A stretch of DNA of 64,000 nt. Origin: a phage. Position numbers and translations under genes: made by a program. Position 1 is the first letter of the stretch, and every line of letters starts with the position of its first letter. The notes beneath the pieces are model-generated. The model was not told the origin of the DNA. It saw only the letters and a program-made list of their open reading frames with translations, and searched no databases. The stretch lies in sequence record PZ179882.1. One strand, written 5' to 3'. This document shows positions 27,878 through 59,393 of this stretch, in pieces.

Positions 27878-28192
27878 CTAAAAGAAACTTCTTTCACAAT
27901 TTTTTCCACTGAACCATGCACTTACCGCTTTCTTGGTCTCAGGAGCAGTGTTATCCATAAACCATTCAAAGGCAGCCTTTTTATGATTCTGGAGGGCTTC
28001 TCGGGCTTTAATCTGCTCACGGTCTATTAACACTAACATATGAGCCTTTCTTGTCACCATGGACTTCTTATGATTTTTTGAATACTCCCAGTCATTTGTC
28101 CATCGCATTGTCGTTGCGAATTGAAATACTGCTTCTTTAATTTTAGTTTCGTAAATTTCACGAGCCTTTGAGTATAACATCACTACCTCCAT
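27878..28192 (-). CDS. hypothetical protein
   Basis: 104 aa ORF. Confidence 0.45.
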   Translation of the reverse strand: MEVVMLYSKAREIYETKIKEAVFQFATTMRWTNDWEYSKNHKKSMVTRKAHMLVLIDREQIKAREALQNHKKAAFEWFMDNTAPETKKAVSAWFSGKNCERSFF

Positions 28193-28262
28193 TCACCAGT
28201 TTAATTCTAGTCATCTTTTTAATGGCAGTCCATATAATCTATTTCTGAACTGTCTTTTTGTC

Positions 28263-28982
28263 TTAGGATTCTTCTAAATGTCTTTTCTGAAAAGTTGATA
28301 CCATACTACGATACGGTTCATTTGGATACCCGTGTTTTATAGCTTCCTTTGTAAATTTTCTCCATCCATATTTAGTTTCTTTCCAAAGCTCGAATAATTC
28401 ATCTTCATATTGCCATATAGTTAAATGAGAACGCTTTGCAGCTTTAATTCCATTAATATGCTTTTCTTTTACTACAGGATTACTTAGTTTCTTTTTAATA
28501 ATATTACTAACTTTTCTAACAAAAACTGGGTCCTTATATCGTTGCGAAGTTTTTATTGAAGTGTTTAATTTAGCTTCCGGTGTGGATGTGACCTCTTTCA
28601 TCTTTTTCTTCATATGCTGTATATGATTAGGATTTTTCCATAAATTTATAGAATGCTTTTTGCATTTTATCCTAGTTTCATCTGCAACCTTTCCTCCTTC
28701 ACCTCCGTATGACAGGTTAACACAGTTTTTTCCATATTTCAATTTACCTGCCATGATATATAATATTTCAGCTTGTACCATTTTATCATAATTATCAAAA
28801 ACTTCTAAAACCGTTTTTGTTAATATGTGGTCATTTGACACTTTTACACGTTCTATATAATTTCCACTACCAACATACGAATCATTGATGTTATTAGTTA
28901 TATGTCGACCATAATAGTATTTCTTAATACCTGTCTTTAAATTTAATATTTCAGTTTTATAGATAGTAAAATATTTTTTCAT
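28263..28982 (-). CDS. GIY-YIG family endonuclease (Seg-like, free-standing)
   Basis: 239 aa; N-terminal IYKT...YYYGRH...YVGSGNY GIY-YIG-like module; lysine-rich C-terminal repeats (WKNPNH, YKDPVF, LSNPVV). Confidence 0.6.
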   Translation of the reverse strand: MKKYFTIYKTEILNLKTGIKKYYYGRHITNNINDSYVGSGNYIERVKVSNDHILTKTVLEVFDNYDKMVQAEILYIMAGKLKYGKNCVNLSYGGEGGKVADETRIKCKKHSINLWKNPNHIQHMKKKMKEVTSTPEAKLNTSIKTSQRYKDPVFVRKVSNIIKKKLSNPVVKEKHINGIKAAKRSHLTIWQYEDELFELWKETKYGWRKFTKEAIKHGYPNEPYRSMVSTFQKRHLEES

Positions 28983-29965
28983 TTTAATAATACCGTTTCA
29001 GCAATTTCTTCCCAACCGTTTTTGTCGGTCATAATAAAGTCAGCAAGATAAAGAGCAGTACGCAGTGAAACATTGCGTAAACGATTAACATTAACTTTCA
29101 TCCATGATAATGCTTTATAAGTTTCTTCATCAGAAAGACCGCGCTTTTGCATCATGTCGGTTGAAAGAATAACATCTTCAACCCTGACCATAATTTCTTC
29201 ATTAGTGTGAACACCCAAATCTAAATAAACTGAGCGGGACACTAATGCTTGTAAATGTGGAGCAAGTTTAGTACCACGGTCTAATTCGCGGTCAATATCA
29301 ACGTTTGTGATAAAAACAATCGTTCCTTTAAATTCAAACTCACGCTCAATGCCTTTTTCTTCTAAGTAAGAAGATGCAGTGCTCCAGCAGACTTTACGGG
29401 TCTCTCCAGTGTCCAGAGCAGCTTTTAGAAGATTAAGAATGTCCATATCAGAGAAAACATCCACATCATCAATCAAAAGGACAGAATTCTCTTCACGATT
29501 ATTCCAAAGCTGCTCATAAAGACCAATACCAGAGATTTTACCATTAATGCTTTTATATTCAATGTATCCATTATCATTTGCTTTATTTAAAGCTTTATCT
29601 AAAGAATACGTTTTACCAATACCTGCTGCGCCAGAGATAATTAATGAACGAATATTTCCATTAATAATACCATTCGTCATCATTCCCATAACATTAAATC
29701 TTTTATTAATGCGGGTTTTCATATCTTCATATGATTCTTTAACTTCTTCAACTTTTACACCATCATATGAAATATCTGATTTGTAAACCCAAACACCGCG
29801 ACGTTTACCGTCAATTTCAACAAAAACTTTACCATCTCCTTGTGCATCTACCGGAGCATTATCTGGGAACCATTCGCCTAAGAGCTCAAAAGTTCCAGAG
29901 ATTTCTTTACCGAAGTAGATACCCTTATTGATAGTTACAGTTTTCATTTTATTCTCCAATTTCAC
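28979..29965 (-). CDS. P-loop NTPase
   Basis: 328 aa; Walker A ISGAAGIGKT and Walker B-like VLLIDDVD. Confidence 0.55.
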   Translation of the reverse strand: MKLENKMKTVTINKGIYFGKEISGTFELLGEWFPDNAPVDAQGDGKVFVEIDGKRRGVWVYKSDISYDGVKVEEVKESYEDMKTRINKRFNVMGMMTNGIINGNIRSLIISGAAGIGKTYSLDKALNKANDNGYIEYKSINGKISGIGLYEQLWNNREENSVLLIDDVDVFSDMDILNLLKAALDTGETRKVCWSTASSYLEEKGIEREFEFKGTIVFITNVDIDRELDRGTKLAPHLQALVSRSVYLDLGVHTNEEIMVRVEDVILSTDMMQKRGLSDEETYKALSWMKVNVNRLRNVSLRTALYLADFIMTDKNGWEEIAETVLLK

Positions 29966-53390: not shown

Positions 53391-53981
53391 ATGCTCTTTA
53401 CATTTTTTGATCCGATTGAATATGCGGCCAAAACGGTGAATAAAAACGCGCCGACTATTCCTATGACAGATATTTTTAGAAACTATAAAGACTATTTTAA
53501 ACGCGCTCTTGCGGGATACCGCTTACGTACTTATTATATCAAAGGTTCACCACGCCCGGAAGAATTAGCAAATACTATATATGGAAATCCGCAGTTGTAT
53601 TGGGTTTTATTGATGTGTAATGATAATTATGATCCGTATTATGGATGGATTACTTCGCAAGAAGCTGCTTATCAAGCATCTATACAAAAATACAAAAACG
53701 TAGGTGGAGACCAAATAGTATATCATGTGAATGAGAACGGTGAAAAATTTTATAATTTAATATCATACGATGATAATCCATATGTTTGGTATGACAAAGG
53801 CGATAAAGCTAGAAAATATCCTCAATATGAAGGAGCACTTGCTGCGGTCGATACGTATGAAGCTGCTGTTCTTGAAAATGAAAAACTTCGTCAAATAAAA
53901 ATAATAGCAAAATCAGACATCAATTCATTTATGAACGACCTTATACGTATAATGGAGAAATCTTATGGAAATGATAAGTAA
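53391..53981 (+). CDS. 53: baseplate wedge protein gp53
   Basis: 196 aa; size and position as in T4. Confidence 0.85.
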   Translation: MLFTFFDPIEYAAKTVNKNAPTIPMTDIFRNYKDYFKRALAGYRLRTYYIKGSPRPEELANTIYGNPQLYWVLLMCNDNYDPYYGWITSQEAAYQASIQKYKNVGGDQIVYHVNENGEKFYNLISYDDNPYVWYDKGDKARKYPQYEGALAAVDTYEAAVLENEKLRQIKIIAKSDINSFMNDLIRIMEKSYGNDK

Positions 53982-55695
53982 TAACCTTAATTGGTTTGTT
54001 GGTGTTGTTGAAGATAGAATGGACCCATTAAAATTAGGTCGTGTTCGTGTTCGTGTAGTTGGTCTGCATCCACCTCAAAGAGCACAAGGCGATGTAATGG
54101 GTATTCCAACTGAAAAATTACCATGGATGTCAGTTATTCAACCTATAACTTCTGCAGCAATGTCTGGAATTGGAGGTTCTGTTACTGGACCGGTAGAAGG
54201 AACTAGAGTTTATGGTCATTTTTTAGACAAATGGAAAACTAACGGAATTGTCCTTGGCACGTATGGTGGAATAGTTCGCGAAAAACCGAATAGACTTGAA
54301 GGATTTTCTGACCCAACTGGACAGTATCCTAGACGTCTAGGAAATGATACTAACGTATTAAACCAAGGCGGAGAAGTAGGATATGATTCGTCTTCTAATA
54401 TTATCCAAGATAGCAATCTAGACACTGCGATAAATCCTGATGATAGACCGCTATCAGAGATTCCAACTGATGATAATCCAAATATGTCAATGGCTGAAAT
54501 GCTTCGCCGTGATGAAGGATTAAGACTAAAAGTTTATTGGGATACAGAAGGATATCCGACAATTGGTATTGGTCATCTTATCATGAAGCAGCCAGTTCGT
54601 GATATGGCCCAAATTAATAAAGTTTTATCAAAACAAGTTGGTCGTGAAATTACCGGAAATCCAGGTTCTATTACAATGGAAGAAGCGGTAACTTTATTTG
54701 AACGCGATTTGGCTGATATGCAACGTGACATTAAATCACATTCTAAAGTTGGCCCAGTTTGGCAAGCAGTTAATCGTTCTCGTCAAATGGCGTTAGAAAA
54801 TATGGCATTCCAAATGGGCGTTGGTGGCGTAGCTAAATTTAACACAATGTTAACTGCTATGTTAGCCGGAGATTGGGAAAAAGCATATAAAGCCGGTCGT
54901 GATTCATTGTGGTATCAACAAACAAAAGGCCGTGCATCGCGTGTTACCATGATTATTCTTACAGGGAATTTGGAATCATACGGTATTGAAGTTAAAACAC
55001 CAGCTAGGTCTTTGTCAGCAATGGCTGCTACTGTAGCAAAGTCTTCTGACCCGGCCGATCCTCCTATTCCGAATGATTCAAGAATTTTATTCAAAGAACC
55101 TGTTTCTTCATATAAAGGTGAGTATCCGTATGTTCATACAATGGAAACTGAAAGCGGTCATATTCAGGAATTTGATGATACCCCTGGGCAAGAGCGATAC
55201 AGATTAGTTCATCCGACTGGAACGTATGAGGAAGTATCACCGTCAGGAAGAAGAACAAGAAAAACTGTTGATAATTTGTATGATATAACAAATGCTGACG
55301 GTAATTTTTTGGTAGCCGGCGATAAAAAGACTAACGTCGGTGGATCAGAAATTTACTACAACATGGATAATCGTCTTCACCAAATAGATGGAAGCAACAC
55401 AATATTTGTCCGTGGCGATGAAACTAAGACAGTTGAAGGTAATGGAACTATCCTAGTTAAAGGTAATGTTACTATTGTAGTTGAAGGTAATGCTGATATT
55501 ACAGTTAAAGGGGATGCTACTACTTTAGTTGAAGGAAATCAAACTAATACAGTAAATGGAAATCTTTCTTGGAAAGTTGCTGGGACAGTTGATTGGGACG
55601 TTGGTGGTGATTGGACAGAAAAAATGGCATCTATGAGTTCTATTTCATCTGGTCAATACACAATTGATGGTAGCCGTATAGACGTAGGTTTATAA
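53965..55695 (+). CDS. 5: baseplate hub and tail lysozyme gp5
   Basis: 576 aa; lysozyme domain MAEMLRRDEGLRLKVYWDTEGYPTIGIGHL homologous to gene e; C-terminal VxGxxTxxVEGN beta-helix repeats. Confidence 0.95.
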   Translation: MEMISNNLNWFVGVVEDRMDPLKLGRVRVRVVGLHPPQRAQGDVMGIPTEKLPWMSVIQPITSAAMSGIGGSVTGPVEGTRVYGHFLDKWKTNGIVLGTYGGIVREKPNRLEGFSDPTGQYPRRLGNDTNVLNQGGEVGYDSSSNIIQDSNLDTAINPDDRPLSEIPTDDNPNMSMAEMLRRDEGLRLKVYWDTEGYPTIGIGHLIMKQPVRDMAQINKVLSKQVGREITGNPGSITMEEAVTLFERDLADMQRDIKSHSKVGPVWQAVNRSRQMALENMAFQMGVGGVAKFNTMLTAMLAGDWEKAYKAGRDSLWYQQTKGRASRVTMIILTGNLESYGIEVKTPARSLSAMAATVAKSSDPADPPIPNDSRILFKEPVSSYKGEYPYVHTMETESGHIQEFDDTPGQERYRLVHPTGTYEEVSPSGRRTRKTVDNLYDITNADGNFLVAGDKKTNVGGSEIYYNMDNRLHQIDGSNTIFVRGDETKTVEGNGTILVKGNVTIVVEGNADITVKGDATTLVEGNQTNTVNGNLSWKVAGTVDWDVGGDWTEKMASMSSISSGQYTIDGSRIDVGL

Positions 55696-55713
55696 ATAAT
55701 TCAGAGGTGAATT

Positions 55714-56580
55714 ATGAAAAAATCTAACACTGTTCAATTTAGATACATATATAAAACAACCGTTACTAATCCGAAAGGATTAGTACGTGTTTATATTGGT
55801 AAACATGAATCTAGATATTTTGATTTAGAAAATGACAAGTATATAGGTTCCGGTGATTATATTAAAAAGATACGCAATAAACCTGGTTATAAAATAGATT
55901 TTGAAATAATTGAATTTGTTTCTACTTATGAAATTCTTAATTTAAGAGAAAGGTATTGGATTTCGAAATATAAATCATCTGACATTCTATGTACCAATAT
56001 AAAATCCGGCGGTGATGGTTTTTCATCCGAAGATTTGAAGAGAATGTGGTCTAATCCTGAATATAGGAAAGCTCAATTGAAGGCATTAGCTAAATCAACG
56101 TCAACTAAAGAATTTTCAGAGAAAATATCTAAAATAAACAAAGAAAGATGCGCATCACCAGAATATCGAAAGAAAATGAGTAATGCGATGAAAACTGCTT
56201 TTGAAAATGACCCGACATTAAAAATTCGTATTTCTAATACTGTTAAATCTTTATGGAAATCCGATGAATACAGAAATAAATTAATCAATCATCCAGGAAA
56301 AATAGAAGGAACGAAACAATCATGGAATGATCCTTTGATAAGAAAATCGAGATTAGATGCTAGAAATAAAAAACTAAGATCAGTTGAACCTTGGATTAGT
56401 ATAGAAAAAGTCAAAAAACTTTGGGAGGATTTGGGAAAACCGCATCCGCAGAAATACAAATGGTTTAGAGAAAAAGCAATTGAACATGACCTTCCGGATG
56501 TAAGTTATAACGCAATTTTAAAAGCTTTGAAAAAATGTGATTATAAATTTACATCATTAGAGAATTCAACAATTGGCTAA
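55714..56580 (+). CDS. GIY-YIG family endonuclease (Seg-like) inserted in the baseplate cluster
   Basis: 288 aa; N-terminal YIYKTT...VYIGKH...YIGSGDY; C-terminal repeated W.NPEYRK and SDEYRNK motifs. Confidence 0.65.
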   Translation: MKKSNTVQFRYIYKTTVTNPKGLVRVYIGKHESRYFDLENDKYIGSGDYIKKIRNKPGYKIDFEIIEFVSTYEILNLRERYWISKYKSSDILCTNIKSGGDGFSSEDLKRMWSNPEYRKAQLKALAKSTSTKEFSEKISKINKERCASPEYRKKMSNAMKTAFENDPTLKIRISNTVKSLWKSDEYRNKLINHPGKIEGTKQSWNDPLIRKSRLDARNKKLRSVEPWISIEKVKKLWEDLGKPHPQKYKWFREKAIEHDLPDVSYNAILKALKKCDYKFTSLENSTIG

Positions 56581-57109
56581 TATACTTCCAATGAGCGCTG
56601 ATTTAGGAGAATCCATGGAAGGTTCTTCTATCGACGTCACCTTTACCGCTCAATTAGAAACAGGTGAAACGTTAGTATCTATAAATATAACTAGTTACGA
56701 AGAAACTCCTGGGGTTTTAGTAGAAGAAAATCGTTTATATGGAACGTATGAATCTGTATTTGGATTTGGAAATGACGCATTGAAATATCGTTTAGATGAT
56801 GAATTTAAAACTGCTGCTTCATGGGAAGACCTTCCAACTGATTCTAATACTCAGTTATATCTATGGAAAGCTCCTCAAAACCTCCAGAAGACATTCACTT
56901 ATGAAGTAACATTAATATATGACTACCAAGAACAAAGTGAATCTGGAGGTTCTGGCAGTAATTCTAGGTCATCTTCTGATACTACTGAACCAACGGATCC
57001 TCCTGCTCCAATAAGAAAAACTCTTGTTAAAAATTACACAAAAACTATAGTTGGAAATTGGAGCCGTTGGGCTAATAAATTGAGAAGCTACGTATATGAG
57101 AGGCAATAA
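56573..57109 (+). CDS. gp5.1-like protein
   Basis: 178 aa ORF between the Seg-like gene and 5.4; assignment positional. Confidence 0.5.
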
Positions 57110-57402
57110 TGTCAGGATTAAGTTATGATAAGTGTGTTACTGCTGGCCATGAAGCATGGCCTCCAACAGTTGTGAATGCTACACAAAGTAAAGTATTCAC
57201 CGGAGGAATTGCTGTTCTCGTAGCAGGTGATCCAATTACAGAACATACAGAAATTAAAAAGCCATATGAAACACATGGCGGAGTGACACAACCTAGAACT
57301 TCTAAGGTATATGTCACTGGAAAGAAAGCTGTTCAAATGGCTGATCCAATATCATGCGGTGATACTGTGGCTCAGGCATCATCTAAAGTATTCATTAAAT
57401 AG
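57109..57402 (+). CDS. 5.4: PAAR-like spike tip protein gp5.4
   Basis: 97 aa, matching the T4 gp5.4 length, immediately upstream of gene 6. Confidence 0.7.
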
Positions 57403-57410
57403 GATTTAAA

Positions 57411-59393
57411 ATGGCAAATACCCCTGTAAATTATCAATTAACAAGAACAGCAAATGCTATTCCCGAGATATTCGTCGGGGGTACATTTGCTGAAATAAAA
57501 CAAAACCTCATTGAATGGCTTAATGGTCAAAATGAATTTTTGGATTATGATTTTGAAGGCTCAAGATTAAACGTTCTGTGCGACCTTTTGGCTTATAATA
57601 CATTGTACATTCAACAGTTTGGTAATGCTGCCGTGTATGAAAGCTTTATGCGTACTGCTAACTTACGTAGTTCAGTAGTTCAAGCGGCACAAGATAATGG
57701 ATATTTACCTACTTCAAAATCAGCTGCTCAAACTGAAATTATGCTAACTTGTATAGATGCATTGAATAGAAATTACATTACTATTCCTCGCGGTACTCGC
57801 TTTTTAGCATATGCAAAGGATACTTCTGTTAATCCTTATAACTTTGTCTCTACTGAAGATGTTATTGCTATTCGTGATAAAAATAACCAGTATTTTCCAC
57901 GTTTAAAATTAGCTCAAGGACGTATAGTAAGAACTGAAATCATTTACGATAAATTAACACCTATTATCATTTATGACAAAAATATAGATAGAAACCAAGT
58001 TAAACTATACGTTGATGGAGCAGAATGGATTAACTGGACAAGAAAGTCAATGGTTCATGCTGGTTCTACATCAACAATTTACTACATGCGTGAAACTATT
58101 GATGGAAATACTGAATTTTATTTTGGTGAAGGTGAGATTTCTGTTAACGCGGCAGAAGGAGCATTGACCGCTAATTATATTGGAGGTCTTAAACCTACCC
58201 AGAACTCTACGATTGTTATTGAGTACATCAGTACTAACGGTGCAGATGCGAATGGTGCAGTCGGATTTTCATACGCAGATACATTAACAAATATAACTGT
58301 CATCAATATTAATGAAAACCCAAACGATGACCCAGATTTTGTTGGGGCAGATGGCGGCGGTGACCCAGAAGATATTGAACGTATTCGCGAATTGGGTACT
58401 ATTAAACGTGAAACCCAACAACGCTGCGTAACTGCGACTGATTATGATACATTCGTTTCAGAAAGATTCGGTTCTATTATTCAAGCGGTTCAGACTTTCA
58501 CTGATTCTACTAAACCTGGTTATGCATTTATTGCTGCTAAACCTAAATCAGGACTATATTTAACTACTGTACAACGTGAAGATATTAAAAATTATCTAAA
58601 AGATTATAATTTAGCTCCTATTACACCATCAATTATTTCTCCTAATTATCTTTTTGTTAAGACTAATTTAAAAGTCACATATGCTTTAAATAAGCTGCAA
58701 GAATCCGAACAGTGGCTCGAAGGTCAAATAATTGATAAAATTGATCGTTATTATACCGAAGACGTAGAAATTTTTAATTCATCTTTCGCTAAATCTAAGA
58801 TGTTGACATATGTAGATGATGCAGATCATTCTATCATTGGCTCATCCGCGACAATTCAAATGGTACGTGAAGTACAAAACTTCTATAAAACGCCTGAAGC
58901 GGGTATTAAATACAATAATCAAATAAAAGATCGTTCTATGGAATCTAATACGTTTTCATTTAATTCTGGACGAAAAGTTGTAAATCCTGATACTGGTTTA
59001 GAAGAAGATGTATTATATGACGTTCGTATAGTATCAACAGACCGAGATTCTAAAGGAATTGGCAAAGTTATTATTGGTCCATTTGCTTCTGGCGATGTTA
59101 CAGAAAATGAAAACATTCAGCCATATACAGGCAATGATTTTAATAAATTAGCAAGTTCCGATGGACGTGACAAATACTATGTTATCGGTGAAATAAATTA
59201 CCCAGCTGACATGATTTATTGGAATATCGCTAAAATTAATTTAACATCCGATAAATTTGAGGTTCAGACTATTGAGCTATATTCTGATCCAATAGACGAT
59301 GTTATTTTCACGCGCGATGGTTCACTGATTGTATTTGAAAATGATTTACGTCCACAATACTTAACTATCGATTTGGAGCCTATATCACAATGA
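57411..59393 (+). CDS. 6: baseplate wedge protein gp6
   Basis: 660 aa; size and order as in T4. Confidence 0.9.
   Translation: MANTPVNYQLTRTANAIPEIFVGGTFAEIKQNLIEWLNGQNEFLDYDFEGSRLNVLCDLLAYNTLYIQQFGNAAVYESFMRTANLRSSVVQAAQDNGYLPTSKSAAQTEIMLTCIDALNRNYITIPRGTRFLAYAKDTSVNPYNFVSTEDVIAIRDKNNQYFPRLKLAQGRIVRTEIIYDKLTPIIIYDKNIDRNQVKLYVDGAEWINWTRKSMVHAGSTSTIYYMRETIDGNTEFYFGEGEISVNAAEGALTANYIGGLKPTQNSTIVIEYISTNGADANGAVGFSYADTLTNITVININENPNDDPDFVGADGGGDPEDIERIRELGTIKRETQQRCVTATDYDTFVSERFGSIIQAVQTFTDSTKPGYAFIAAKPKSGLYLTTVQREDIKNYLKDYNLAPITPSIISPNYLFVKTNLKVTYALNKLQESEQWLEGQIIDKIDRYYTEDVEIFNSSFAKSKMLTYVDDADHSIIGSSATIQMVREVQNFYKTPEAGIKYNNQIKDRSMESNTFSFNSGRKVVNPDTGLEEDVLYDVRIVSTDRDSKGIGKVIIGPFASGDVTENENIQPYTGNDFNKLASSDGRDKYYVIGEINYPADMIYWNIAKINLTSDKFEVQTIELYSDPIDDVIFTRDGSLIVFENDLRPQYLTIDLEPISQ

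Follow-up and report, generated by a model that had tools for sequence, protein, structure and literature searches.

A review lists five of the Seg proteins of phage T4, namely SegA, B, C, E and F, as active (PMC2988022), and phage T6 is listed with six seg-like genes (Petrov et al. 2010). SegF is described as a hybrid and listed among the promoter-less cassettes, and segF contains an intrinsic (internal) terminator in its 5' end (PMC2988022). Sequestration of the ribosome-binding site by a hairpin has been described for segB (PMC2330249), and a design in which such a hairpin is bypassed by transcripts from a late promoter has been described for I-TevI, segB and mobE (PMC2988022, PMC2330249). 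I-TevI shares with the gene described here the catalytic fold and its Tyr, Tyr, Glu and Asn residues, as well as a modular arrangement of catalytic domain, linker and DNA-binding domain, but it is encoded in an intron (td) and carries a zinc finger and a NUMOD1 helix-turn-helix.

We analysed a 64,000-nucleotide stretch of phage DNA (PZ179882.1, hereafter the window) that comes from a T-even phage of the T6 type, a T6-like Tequatrovirus. Over the interval 53900-57500, Yersinia phage ZN18, T6 and some 30 further Tequatrovirus records match it at 96-98.5% identity. A 288-aa ORF in this interval, referred to here as seg, is labelled 'seg-like ... T6ncORF142' in the T6 GenBank record MH550421 and 'Seg-like homing endonuclease, GIY-YIG family' in other records, while most GenBank records of T6-like phages call it a 'hypothetical protein'. 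The gene is therefore already annotated as seg-like and is of a kind ordinary for T-even phages. It is an uncharacterised member of that kind, and our literature search found no experiment or functional study on this seg protein. Our reading is that it encodes a homing endonuclease from the Seg branch of the GIY-YIG nucleases, free-standing and made up of a catalytic domain, about six helical repeats and a DNA-reading C-terminus, and that it would home by the mechanism proposed below. The probability of this reading is, in our estimate, about 0.8.

The seg gene and its protein

The gene order on the + strand is 53, 5, the 288-aa ORF, 5.1, 5.4, 6, 7. The genes considered here are:

53965..55695, + strand: gene 5 (baseplate hub and tail lysozyme), 576 aa with C-terminus ...GSRIDVGL; the T4 protein has 575 aa and ends ...GSRIDIG
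55714..56580, + strand: seg ORF, Seg-type GIY-YIG homing endonuclease, 288 aa, ATG start
56615..57109, + strand: gene 5.1, 164 aa, ATG preceded by GGAG
57109-57402, + strand: gene 5.4
28263..28982, - strand: paralogous Seg-type GIY-YIG gene, 239 aa, with nrdC.2-like and nrdC.4-like neighbours

The ORF lies where the original prediction had placed it, between gene 5 and a homologue of gene 5.1. It is free-standing, with its own start and stop, outside any intron or intein, and a scan of 55500-56800 against the RNA families of Rfam returned nothing credible. Gene 5.1 most likely starts at the ATG at 56615, as annotated in T4 and T6, and therefore does not truly overlap seg. A TTG at 56573 was considered as the start of gene 5.1 and disfavoured, given the T4 and T6 annotation and an upstream frame in phage F2 that has no start codon. 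In T4 the annotated replication origin oriE (L013 10356; equivalent to about 55365 in the window) is roughly 330 bp upstream of the gene 5 stop, near the insertion site, and the T6 record annotates repEA and repEB within gene 5 on the opposite strand.

The YIGKH...YIGSGDY module and the W..PEYR-type repeats from which the gene had been recognised are present in the protein. The 'GIY' equivalent, YIY, is at residue 11, YIGKH at 27 and YIGSGDY at 43, and the repeats are WSNPEYR at 112, ASPEYRKK at 147, WKSDEYR at 181 and WNDPLIR at 204. Three regions can be distinguished:

55714..56028, + strand: catalytic GIY-YIG domain, aa 1-105; Y13, Y27, G29, E79 and N95 invariant
56029..56385, + strand: helical repeat region, aa 106-224; about six 17-aa W-x-x-P-E-Y-R-x-K units
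56386..56577, + strand: C-terminal helical domain, aa 225-288, common to the 28263 paralogue

We presume that residues 106-224 form a NUMOD3-like DNA-binding linker and that residues 225-288, for which the structure model is of low confidence, presumably form the module that reads the DNA sequence.

Similarity to the GIY-YIG nucleases was upheld by profile comparison and by fold. A profile built from 14 relatives matched the catalytic domain of I-TevI (1LN0, E=2.3e-6), and a profile of 88 sequences aligned with I-TevI in hhalign at a probability of 97.2% (E=2.8e-11). This alignment pairs Y13, Y27, G29, E79 and N95 of seg with Y6, Y17, G19, E75 and N90 of I-TevI, respectively. Y13, Y27 and G29 were invariant in the 88 and in 116 relatives; E79 and N95, the counterparts of I-TevI E75 and N90, were invariant in the family, and so was the Y43-x-G-S-G motif. 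The seg protein has the beta-beta-alpha-beta-alpha core fold of the GIY-YIG domain. No conserved Arg could be placed at the equivalent of I-TevI R27, where K/Q30-H31 are found and where two alignments position R27 differently. T4 SegA-F carry a G-x-H motif, as does the seg protein (K-H).

At E<=1e-3 the family profile gave 91,111 cluster representatives. Among the 88 closest relatives, Pfam assigned SegE_GIY-YIG (PF19835) to 44, NUMOD3 (PF07460) to 40 and GIY-YIG (PF01541) to 31. The seg protein itself matched none of these three models, even at E<=1. It differs from most relatives by two insertions specific to its lineage, PKGL at residues 20-23 (absent in 84 of the 88) and LEN at residues 38-40, both in the catalytic domain, and the failure to match coincides with them. 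In PHROGs, phrog_314 ('homing endonuclease') was matched both by seg (1e-25) and by the 28263-28982 protein (2e-30). A scan of NCBIfam gave only a weak match to TIGR01453, 'group I intron endonuclease', at a sub-cut-off E=0.0016, and weak GerD-type matches in the direct family scans (Pfam/NCBIfam) were set aside as spurious. A phmmer search with the single sequence against PDB gave no match, and Foldseek gave no significant match for either structure model.

The suggested paralogy with the 28263-28982 gene was borne out by BLASTP (28% identity over 186 aa, E=4e-16), and these two ORFs were the only ones within the window to match the family profile. Within the region 27878-29965 (- strand) the paralogue lies between the nrdC.2-like and nrdC.4-like genes, a slot that in T4 is held by the unrelated nrdC.3; the idea that T4 nrdC.3 might be a diverged Seg was rejected, as it did not match the Seg profile. 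In Serratia phage 92A1 (L031 ~390-1100) the reading frame of a homologue of the 28263 type is broken by a stop codon (…ENLKT*VIKHYFGKH…). This homologue is annotated in fragments and looks, from its sequence, like a decaying homing endonuclease gene.

Comparison with the T4 Seg proteins also gave matches, which together with PHROG_314 and the I-TevI profile alignment bear out the Seg-like identity. The best pairwise match in T4 was SegF, whose gene lies between soc and 56 (31% identity over 167 aa, E=2e-9, BLASTP). Like seg, SegF has a 'P-K-G' insertion in the first beta-hairpin and ...GKHES...NDKY.GSG motifs, and is encoded by a free-standing gene beside an essential gene. The locus and presumed target differ, being gene 56 for SegF and the gene 5 tail for seg. 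SegB (1.7e-8), SegA (5e-6), SegD (5e-4) and SegE were weaker BLASTP matches, and the family profile run on T4 found SegB (6e-38), SegD (5e-35), SegE (2e-33) and SegA (4e-31). These four proteins share with seg the Y-I-G-x-H ... Y-x-G-S-G signature and have the Pfam SegE_GIY-YIG plus NUMOD3 architecture, for which seg falls below the Pfam thresholds. Their pairwise identity to seg is 23-30%, and seg differs from them by its two catalytic-domain insertions.

SegC is of interest for its position. It is encoded by a different free-standing GIY-YIG gene of T4, located between 5.1 and 5.3/5.4 at the next intergenic position in the same cluster, but its similarity to seg is weak and N-terminal (E=1e-3). 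There is no segC in the window. Five records with seg (LH2, SP21535, CJY920, Manna and T4_ev151) have a segC-type gene between 5.1 and 5.4. Because segC adjoins the seg site and LH2 and other phages carry both genes, the gene 5-5.4 interval is a hot spot for such elements. In LH2 (L003 3697-4287) an intact ORF of 196 aa corresponds to T4 segC (140 aa) plus 5.3 (56 aa) (L013 11197-11792); the T4 reference has one C fewer in the GGGCCTAGAG/GGCCTAGAGG repeat, which is either a frameshift or a sequencing difference.

Selection on the protein was estimated from two diverged alleles, those of phage F2 (86% aa identity) and of a metagenome contig (78%). With synonymous sites near saturation, dN/dS was 0.06-0.12 in each of the three protein regions, catalytic residues included. 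Values of about 0.1 indicate that the seg protein is under constraint. These values and the size of the family found by the profile show that the ORF has not arisen by chance.

Insertion footprint, distribution and scar alleles

The cassette amounts to 901 bp in place of 13 bp and sits within the last codons of gene 5. Homology to the seg-less phages T4 and IME537 ends after 55670 and resumes at 56572, so that the break point is inside gene 5, seven codons ahead of the stop. The features of the footprint are:

55671..55695, + strand: left end of the foreign segment, a differently coded gene 5 tail, GGTAGCCGTATAGACGTAGGTTTATAA against naive GGATCGAGGATTGACATTGGCTAA
55690..55697, + strand: left copy of the 8-bp direct repeat TTATAAAT, an endpoint of the scar deletion
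56541..56548, + strand: right copy of TTATAAAT, the other deletion endpoint; doubles as TATAAATT, a near-consensus late-promoter-like motif ahead of gene 5.1
56572..56580, + strand: ATTGGCTAA, remnant of the original gene 5 end (Ile-Gly-stop), now the last two codons and stop of seg

In naive phages gene 5 ends GGA TCG AGG ATT GAC ATT GGC TAA and the gene 5/5.1 junction is spelled ...ATTGATGG/ATCGAGGATTGACATTGGCTAA. The tail in the window reads GGT AGC CGT ATA GAC GTA GGT TTA TAA. The recoding changes 11 of 24 bases and includes codon-family switches for Ser (TCG to AGC) and Arg (AGG to CGT), and it leaves the peptide unchanged except for an Ile to Val replacement and an added Leu. The naive spelling is conserved even in Gaprivervirus VR20, a phage of another genus, despite the divergence of gene 5 around it. 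In the seg-carrying and scar phages gp5 ends ...IDVGL (window 55693-55695) and has 576 aa, compared with ...IDIG and 575 aa in T4. The C-terminus of gp5 is the spike tip, the seat of the gp5.4 PAAR protein. The recoded tail is predicted to be a cause of self-immunity; alternatively, it could have been carried in with the cassette from a diverged donor without selection for immunity.

A survey of 50,697 phage records was used to follow the locus. Thirty-three records carried seg, 30 of the T6 type and 3 of the F2 type (RefSeq/GenBank duplicates counted), or about 6% of the related records. The original prediction had asked whether genes 5 and 5.1 are neighbours in relatives, and they are: the two genes were directly adjacent, with an uninterrupted junction, in 482 records, and in 462 of these the 77 nt compared were identical at >=99%. 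In the seg-less T-even phages, the gene 5 end and the 5/5.1 junction are almost invariant. F2/ZQ3 and Mosigvirus CEV1 have the cassette at this site too. When IMG/VR and JGI metagenomes were scanned for further close alleles, nothing came up beyond the same phage and relatives as distant as 25-45% identity.

Four further records carried a deletion scar. ESh36, 215Ecol030PP and LF73P3 retain the recoded tail and, immediately after it, the final 38 nt of seg; the deletion joins the two copies of TTATAAAT, at 55690 and 56541. The scar lies at L006 2270-2330 in Shigella phage ESh36 and at L008 1497-1560 in LF73P1. The LF73P1 scar combines an F2-type tail spelling with a T6-type seg remnant and must therefore reflect either a second deletion or later recombination.

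The flanks were compared in four seg-carrying, two naive and two scar genomes. Over the right flank the window differs from seg-less IME537 at 1 of 538 bases and from T6, which carries seg, at 24. No flank SNP tracked with seg in these eight genomes, and no co-conversion tract could be defined. Since the flank haplotypes are not linked to seg, the recoded tail and the insertion are the only consistent difference between carriers and non-carriers within about 700 bp on the left and about 540 bp on the right. When the window is compared with F2, identity is 93-96% in the 3' half of seg (56225-56524), 70-73% in the 5' half and 73-75% in genes 5 and 5.1. This mosaic boundary within the gene suggests that the 3' half, which encodes the presumed DNA-binding part, was exchanged recently. 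Taken together, these patterns are those of a mobile element with gains, exchanges and losses that all occur at a single site.

Candidate expression signals

Three elements at the 5' end of seg could limit its expression:

55691..55698, + strand: TATAAATA, a perfect T4 late-promoter motif; it overlaps the stop codon of gene 5, and 15 nt separate its end from the seg ATG
55696..55715, + strand: RBS hairpin, an 8-bp inverted repeat ATAATTCA-GAGG-TGAATTAT; -5.9 kcal/mol, z=-5.2
55764..55785, + strand: internal hairpin TACTAATCC-GAAA-GGATTAGTA, codons V17-V24; 9 bp, z=-5.1

The TATAAATA motif at 55691-55698 is kept in all four alleles (window, F2, CEV1 and metagenome). Its 12 occurrences in the window are no excess over the 11.4 expected, so that its position and conservation alone count. 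Possession of this motif distinguishes seg from the promoter-less segF cassette. The loop of the RBS hairpin holds the Shine-Dalgarno GAGG, and its stem takes in the AU of the start codon AUG. The evidence for this hairpin is moderate because each of the other two lineages, F2 and L010, has one mismatch in the stem that is not offset by a compensatory change. The pairing of a late promoter with a hairpin that would block translation from upstream transcripts is a likeness to I-TevI.

The internal hairpin encodes the PKGL insertion, and its stem is maintained in three diverged alleles, F2/CEV1 and the metagenome included. Three of the nine pairs are changed on both sides, all at synonymous positions. 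When VTNPKGLV is encoded with synonymous codons drawn at random, the inner eight Watson-Crick pairs survive in only 2.1% of cases. A covariation test on the three distinct sequences, in which 39 of 500 shuffles did equally well, is suggestive only. T4 segF has a GAAA-loop hairpin at the homologous codons, and by this likeness we read the seg hairpin as a probable counterpart of the internal terminator hairpin at the 5' end of segF. The two differ in that segF has a GC-rich stem followed by a T run, whereas the stem in the window is AT-rich with a weak T tract. As the T tract is weak and is absent in F2, termination at this hairpin is only putative. Hairpins also occur in genes of the 28263 type. 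The homologue in Klebsiella phage Wolf_ER13 (L029 395-530) has a 10-bp hairpin, CCGGAGTAGT-TAAAC-ACTACTTCGG, within the codons for the same beta-hairpin insertion, and the 28263-28982 paralogue in the window has a weak 6-bp version (-3 kcal/mol).

Proposed mechanism, rival explanations and significance

We propose that, upon co-infection with a relative that lacks seg, the enzyme would cut the gene 5 end and the 5/5.1 junction of that relative, or a point close by. Repair of the break by phage recombination from the genome that carries seg would then copy in the whole cassette. The model of cutting and of copying-in during repair is taken over from SegA, B, C, E, F and G (PMC2988022). The carrier would be spared on two counts, the site being interrupted by the cassette and the last gene 5 codons being recoded. 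I-TevI achieves immunity through an intron that splits its site; seg would use insertion and synonymous recoding. The carrier and scar alleles should both be resistant, judging by their sequences. Free-standing Seg enzymes can cut hundreds of base pairs away from their own gene. In this case the naive gene 5 end is most probably part of the sequence that is recognised or cleaved, since the tail and the insertion are the sole consistent allele difference nearby, a comparison that covers a handful of genomes over ~700 bp on the left and 540 bp on the right.

Expression would be held low and late by the three elements described above. The cassette would use its own late promoter; the RBS hairpin would hide the ribosome-binding site on transcripts that read through from gene 5, whereas the 5' arm of that hairpin would be missing from transcripts that begin at the late promoter; and the internal hairpin, about 50 nt into the ORF, would act in the manner of an attenuator. 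A more specific form of this proposal is that the cassette is a self-contained homing module that brings a pre-recoded gene 5 tail and keeps an expression-limiting hairpin within the 4-residue insertion of the catalytic beta-hairpin. We put this forward tentatively, with the odds somewhat against it. If the tail is pre-recoded, the cassette can land inside gene 5 without harm to gp5 and destroy its own target at the same time. The hairpin in the insertion is an arrangement common to segF and the Klebsiella phage homologue; on this proposal, selection at the RNA level would have shaped protein sequence across a whole Seg sub-branch.

Three other explanations of the gene were weighed. Seg might be a stranded or domesticated former Seg gene that no longer homes and is kept because its deletion could harm the gene 5 tail or signals for the baseplate genes downstream, or for some other benefit. 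The 5' half has diverged between the window and F2 about as much as the flanks (70-73% nt), which suggests long vertical residence; the gene is present in only about 6% of records and so has not swept; and the TATAAATT motif ahead of gene 5.1 lies within the seg ORF. However, a dN/dS of about 0.1 over all three regions, catalytic residues included, is that of a protein still under constraint, and the viable scar alleles tell us that the ORF can be lost cleanly. The unrelated flank haplotypes, together with a 3' half that is 93-96% identical across phages that are otherwise 73-75% identical, point to recent transfer. We therefore consider a stranded gene unlikely.

Less likely again is an active GIY-YIG nuclease that serves chiefly for some purpose besides spreading itself, such as cutting rival or host DNA or promoting recombination or amplification elsewhere. 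There are precedents in the recent report that T6 SegB, acting both in cis and in trans, promotes the segmental amplification of loci for anti-defence (PMC13096335), and in the relaxed specificity of Seg enzymes (PMC2330249). Yet the precise insertion, conserved site, recoded copy and presence/absence polymorphism are what self-propagation predicts, and within the window no defence or anti-defence locus is tied to seg. That the protein instead belongs to the baseplate, as a structural part or an assembly factor, and owes its place in the late operon to this, is very improbable. Position and strand alone, among 53, 5, 5.1, 5.4, 6 and 7, speak for such a role, while T4, T2 and 482 other records with a complete baseplate cluster lack the gene, its sequence and fold are those of a GIY-YIG nuclease, and it matched no structural family. 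The original prediction had named a structural identity as the outcome that would overturn it, and we reject that identity on these grounds.

Homing by a Seg-type endonuclease is thus the reading we favour, and it leaves the current understanding of Seg enzymes unchanged. Useful but unsurprising details are the recoding of the tail, the existence of scar alleles and the conservation of the internal hairpin. For annotation, the identity of the ORF is settled for the T6-like records and the start of gene 5.1 is corrected. With seg, a second homing gene is found beside segC in the 5-5.4 interval. The original prediction saw in a nuclease gene embedded in this operon the mark of marker exclusion; by analogy, exclusion is a plausible consequence of seg, and the presence of the gene may help to explain marker exclusion and mosaicism in the baseplate cluster. 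The insertion footprint, the deletion scars and the built-in expression controls are unusually readable here. A naive target, an occupied site and an empty, presumably resistant scar form a natural series at one site in an essential gene, and together they represent three states of the homing endonuclease life cycle in phages that can be crossed in the laboratory.
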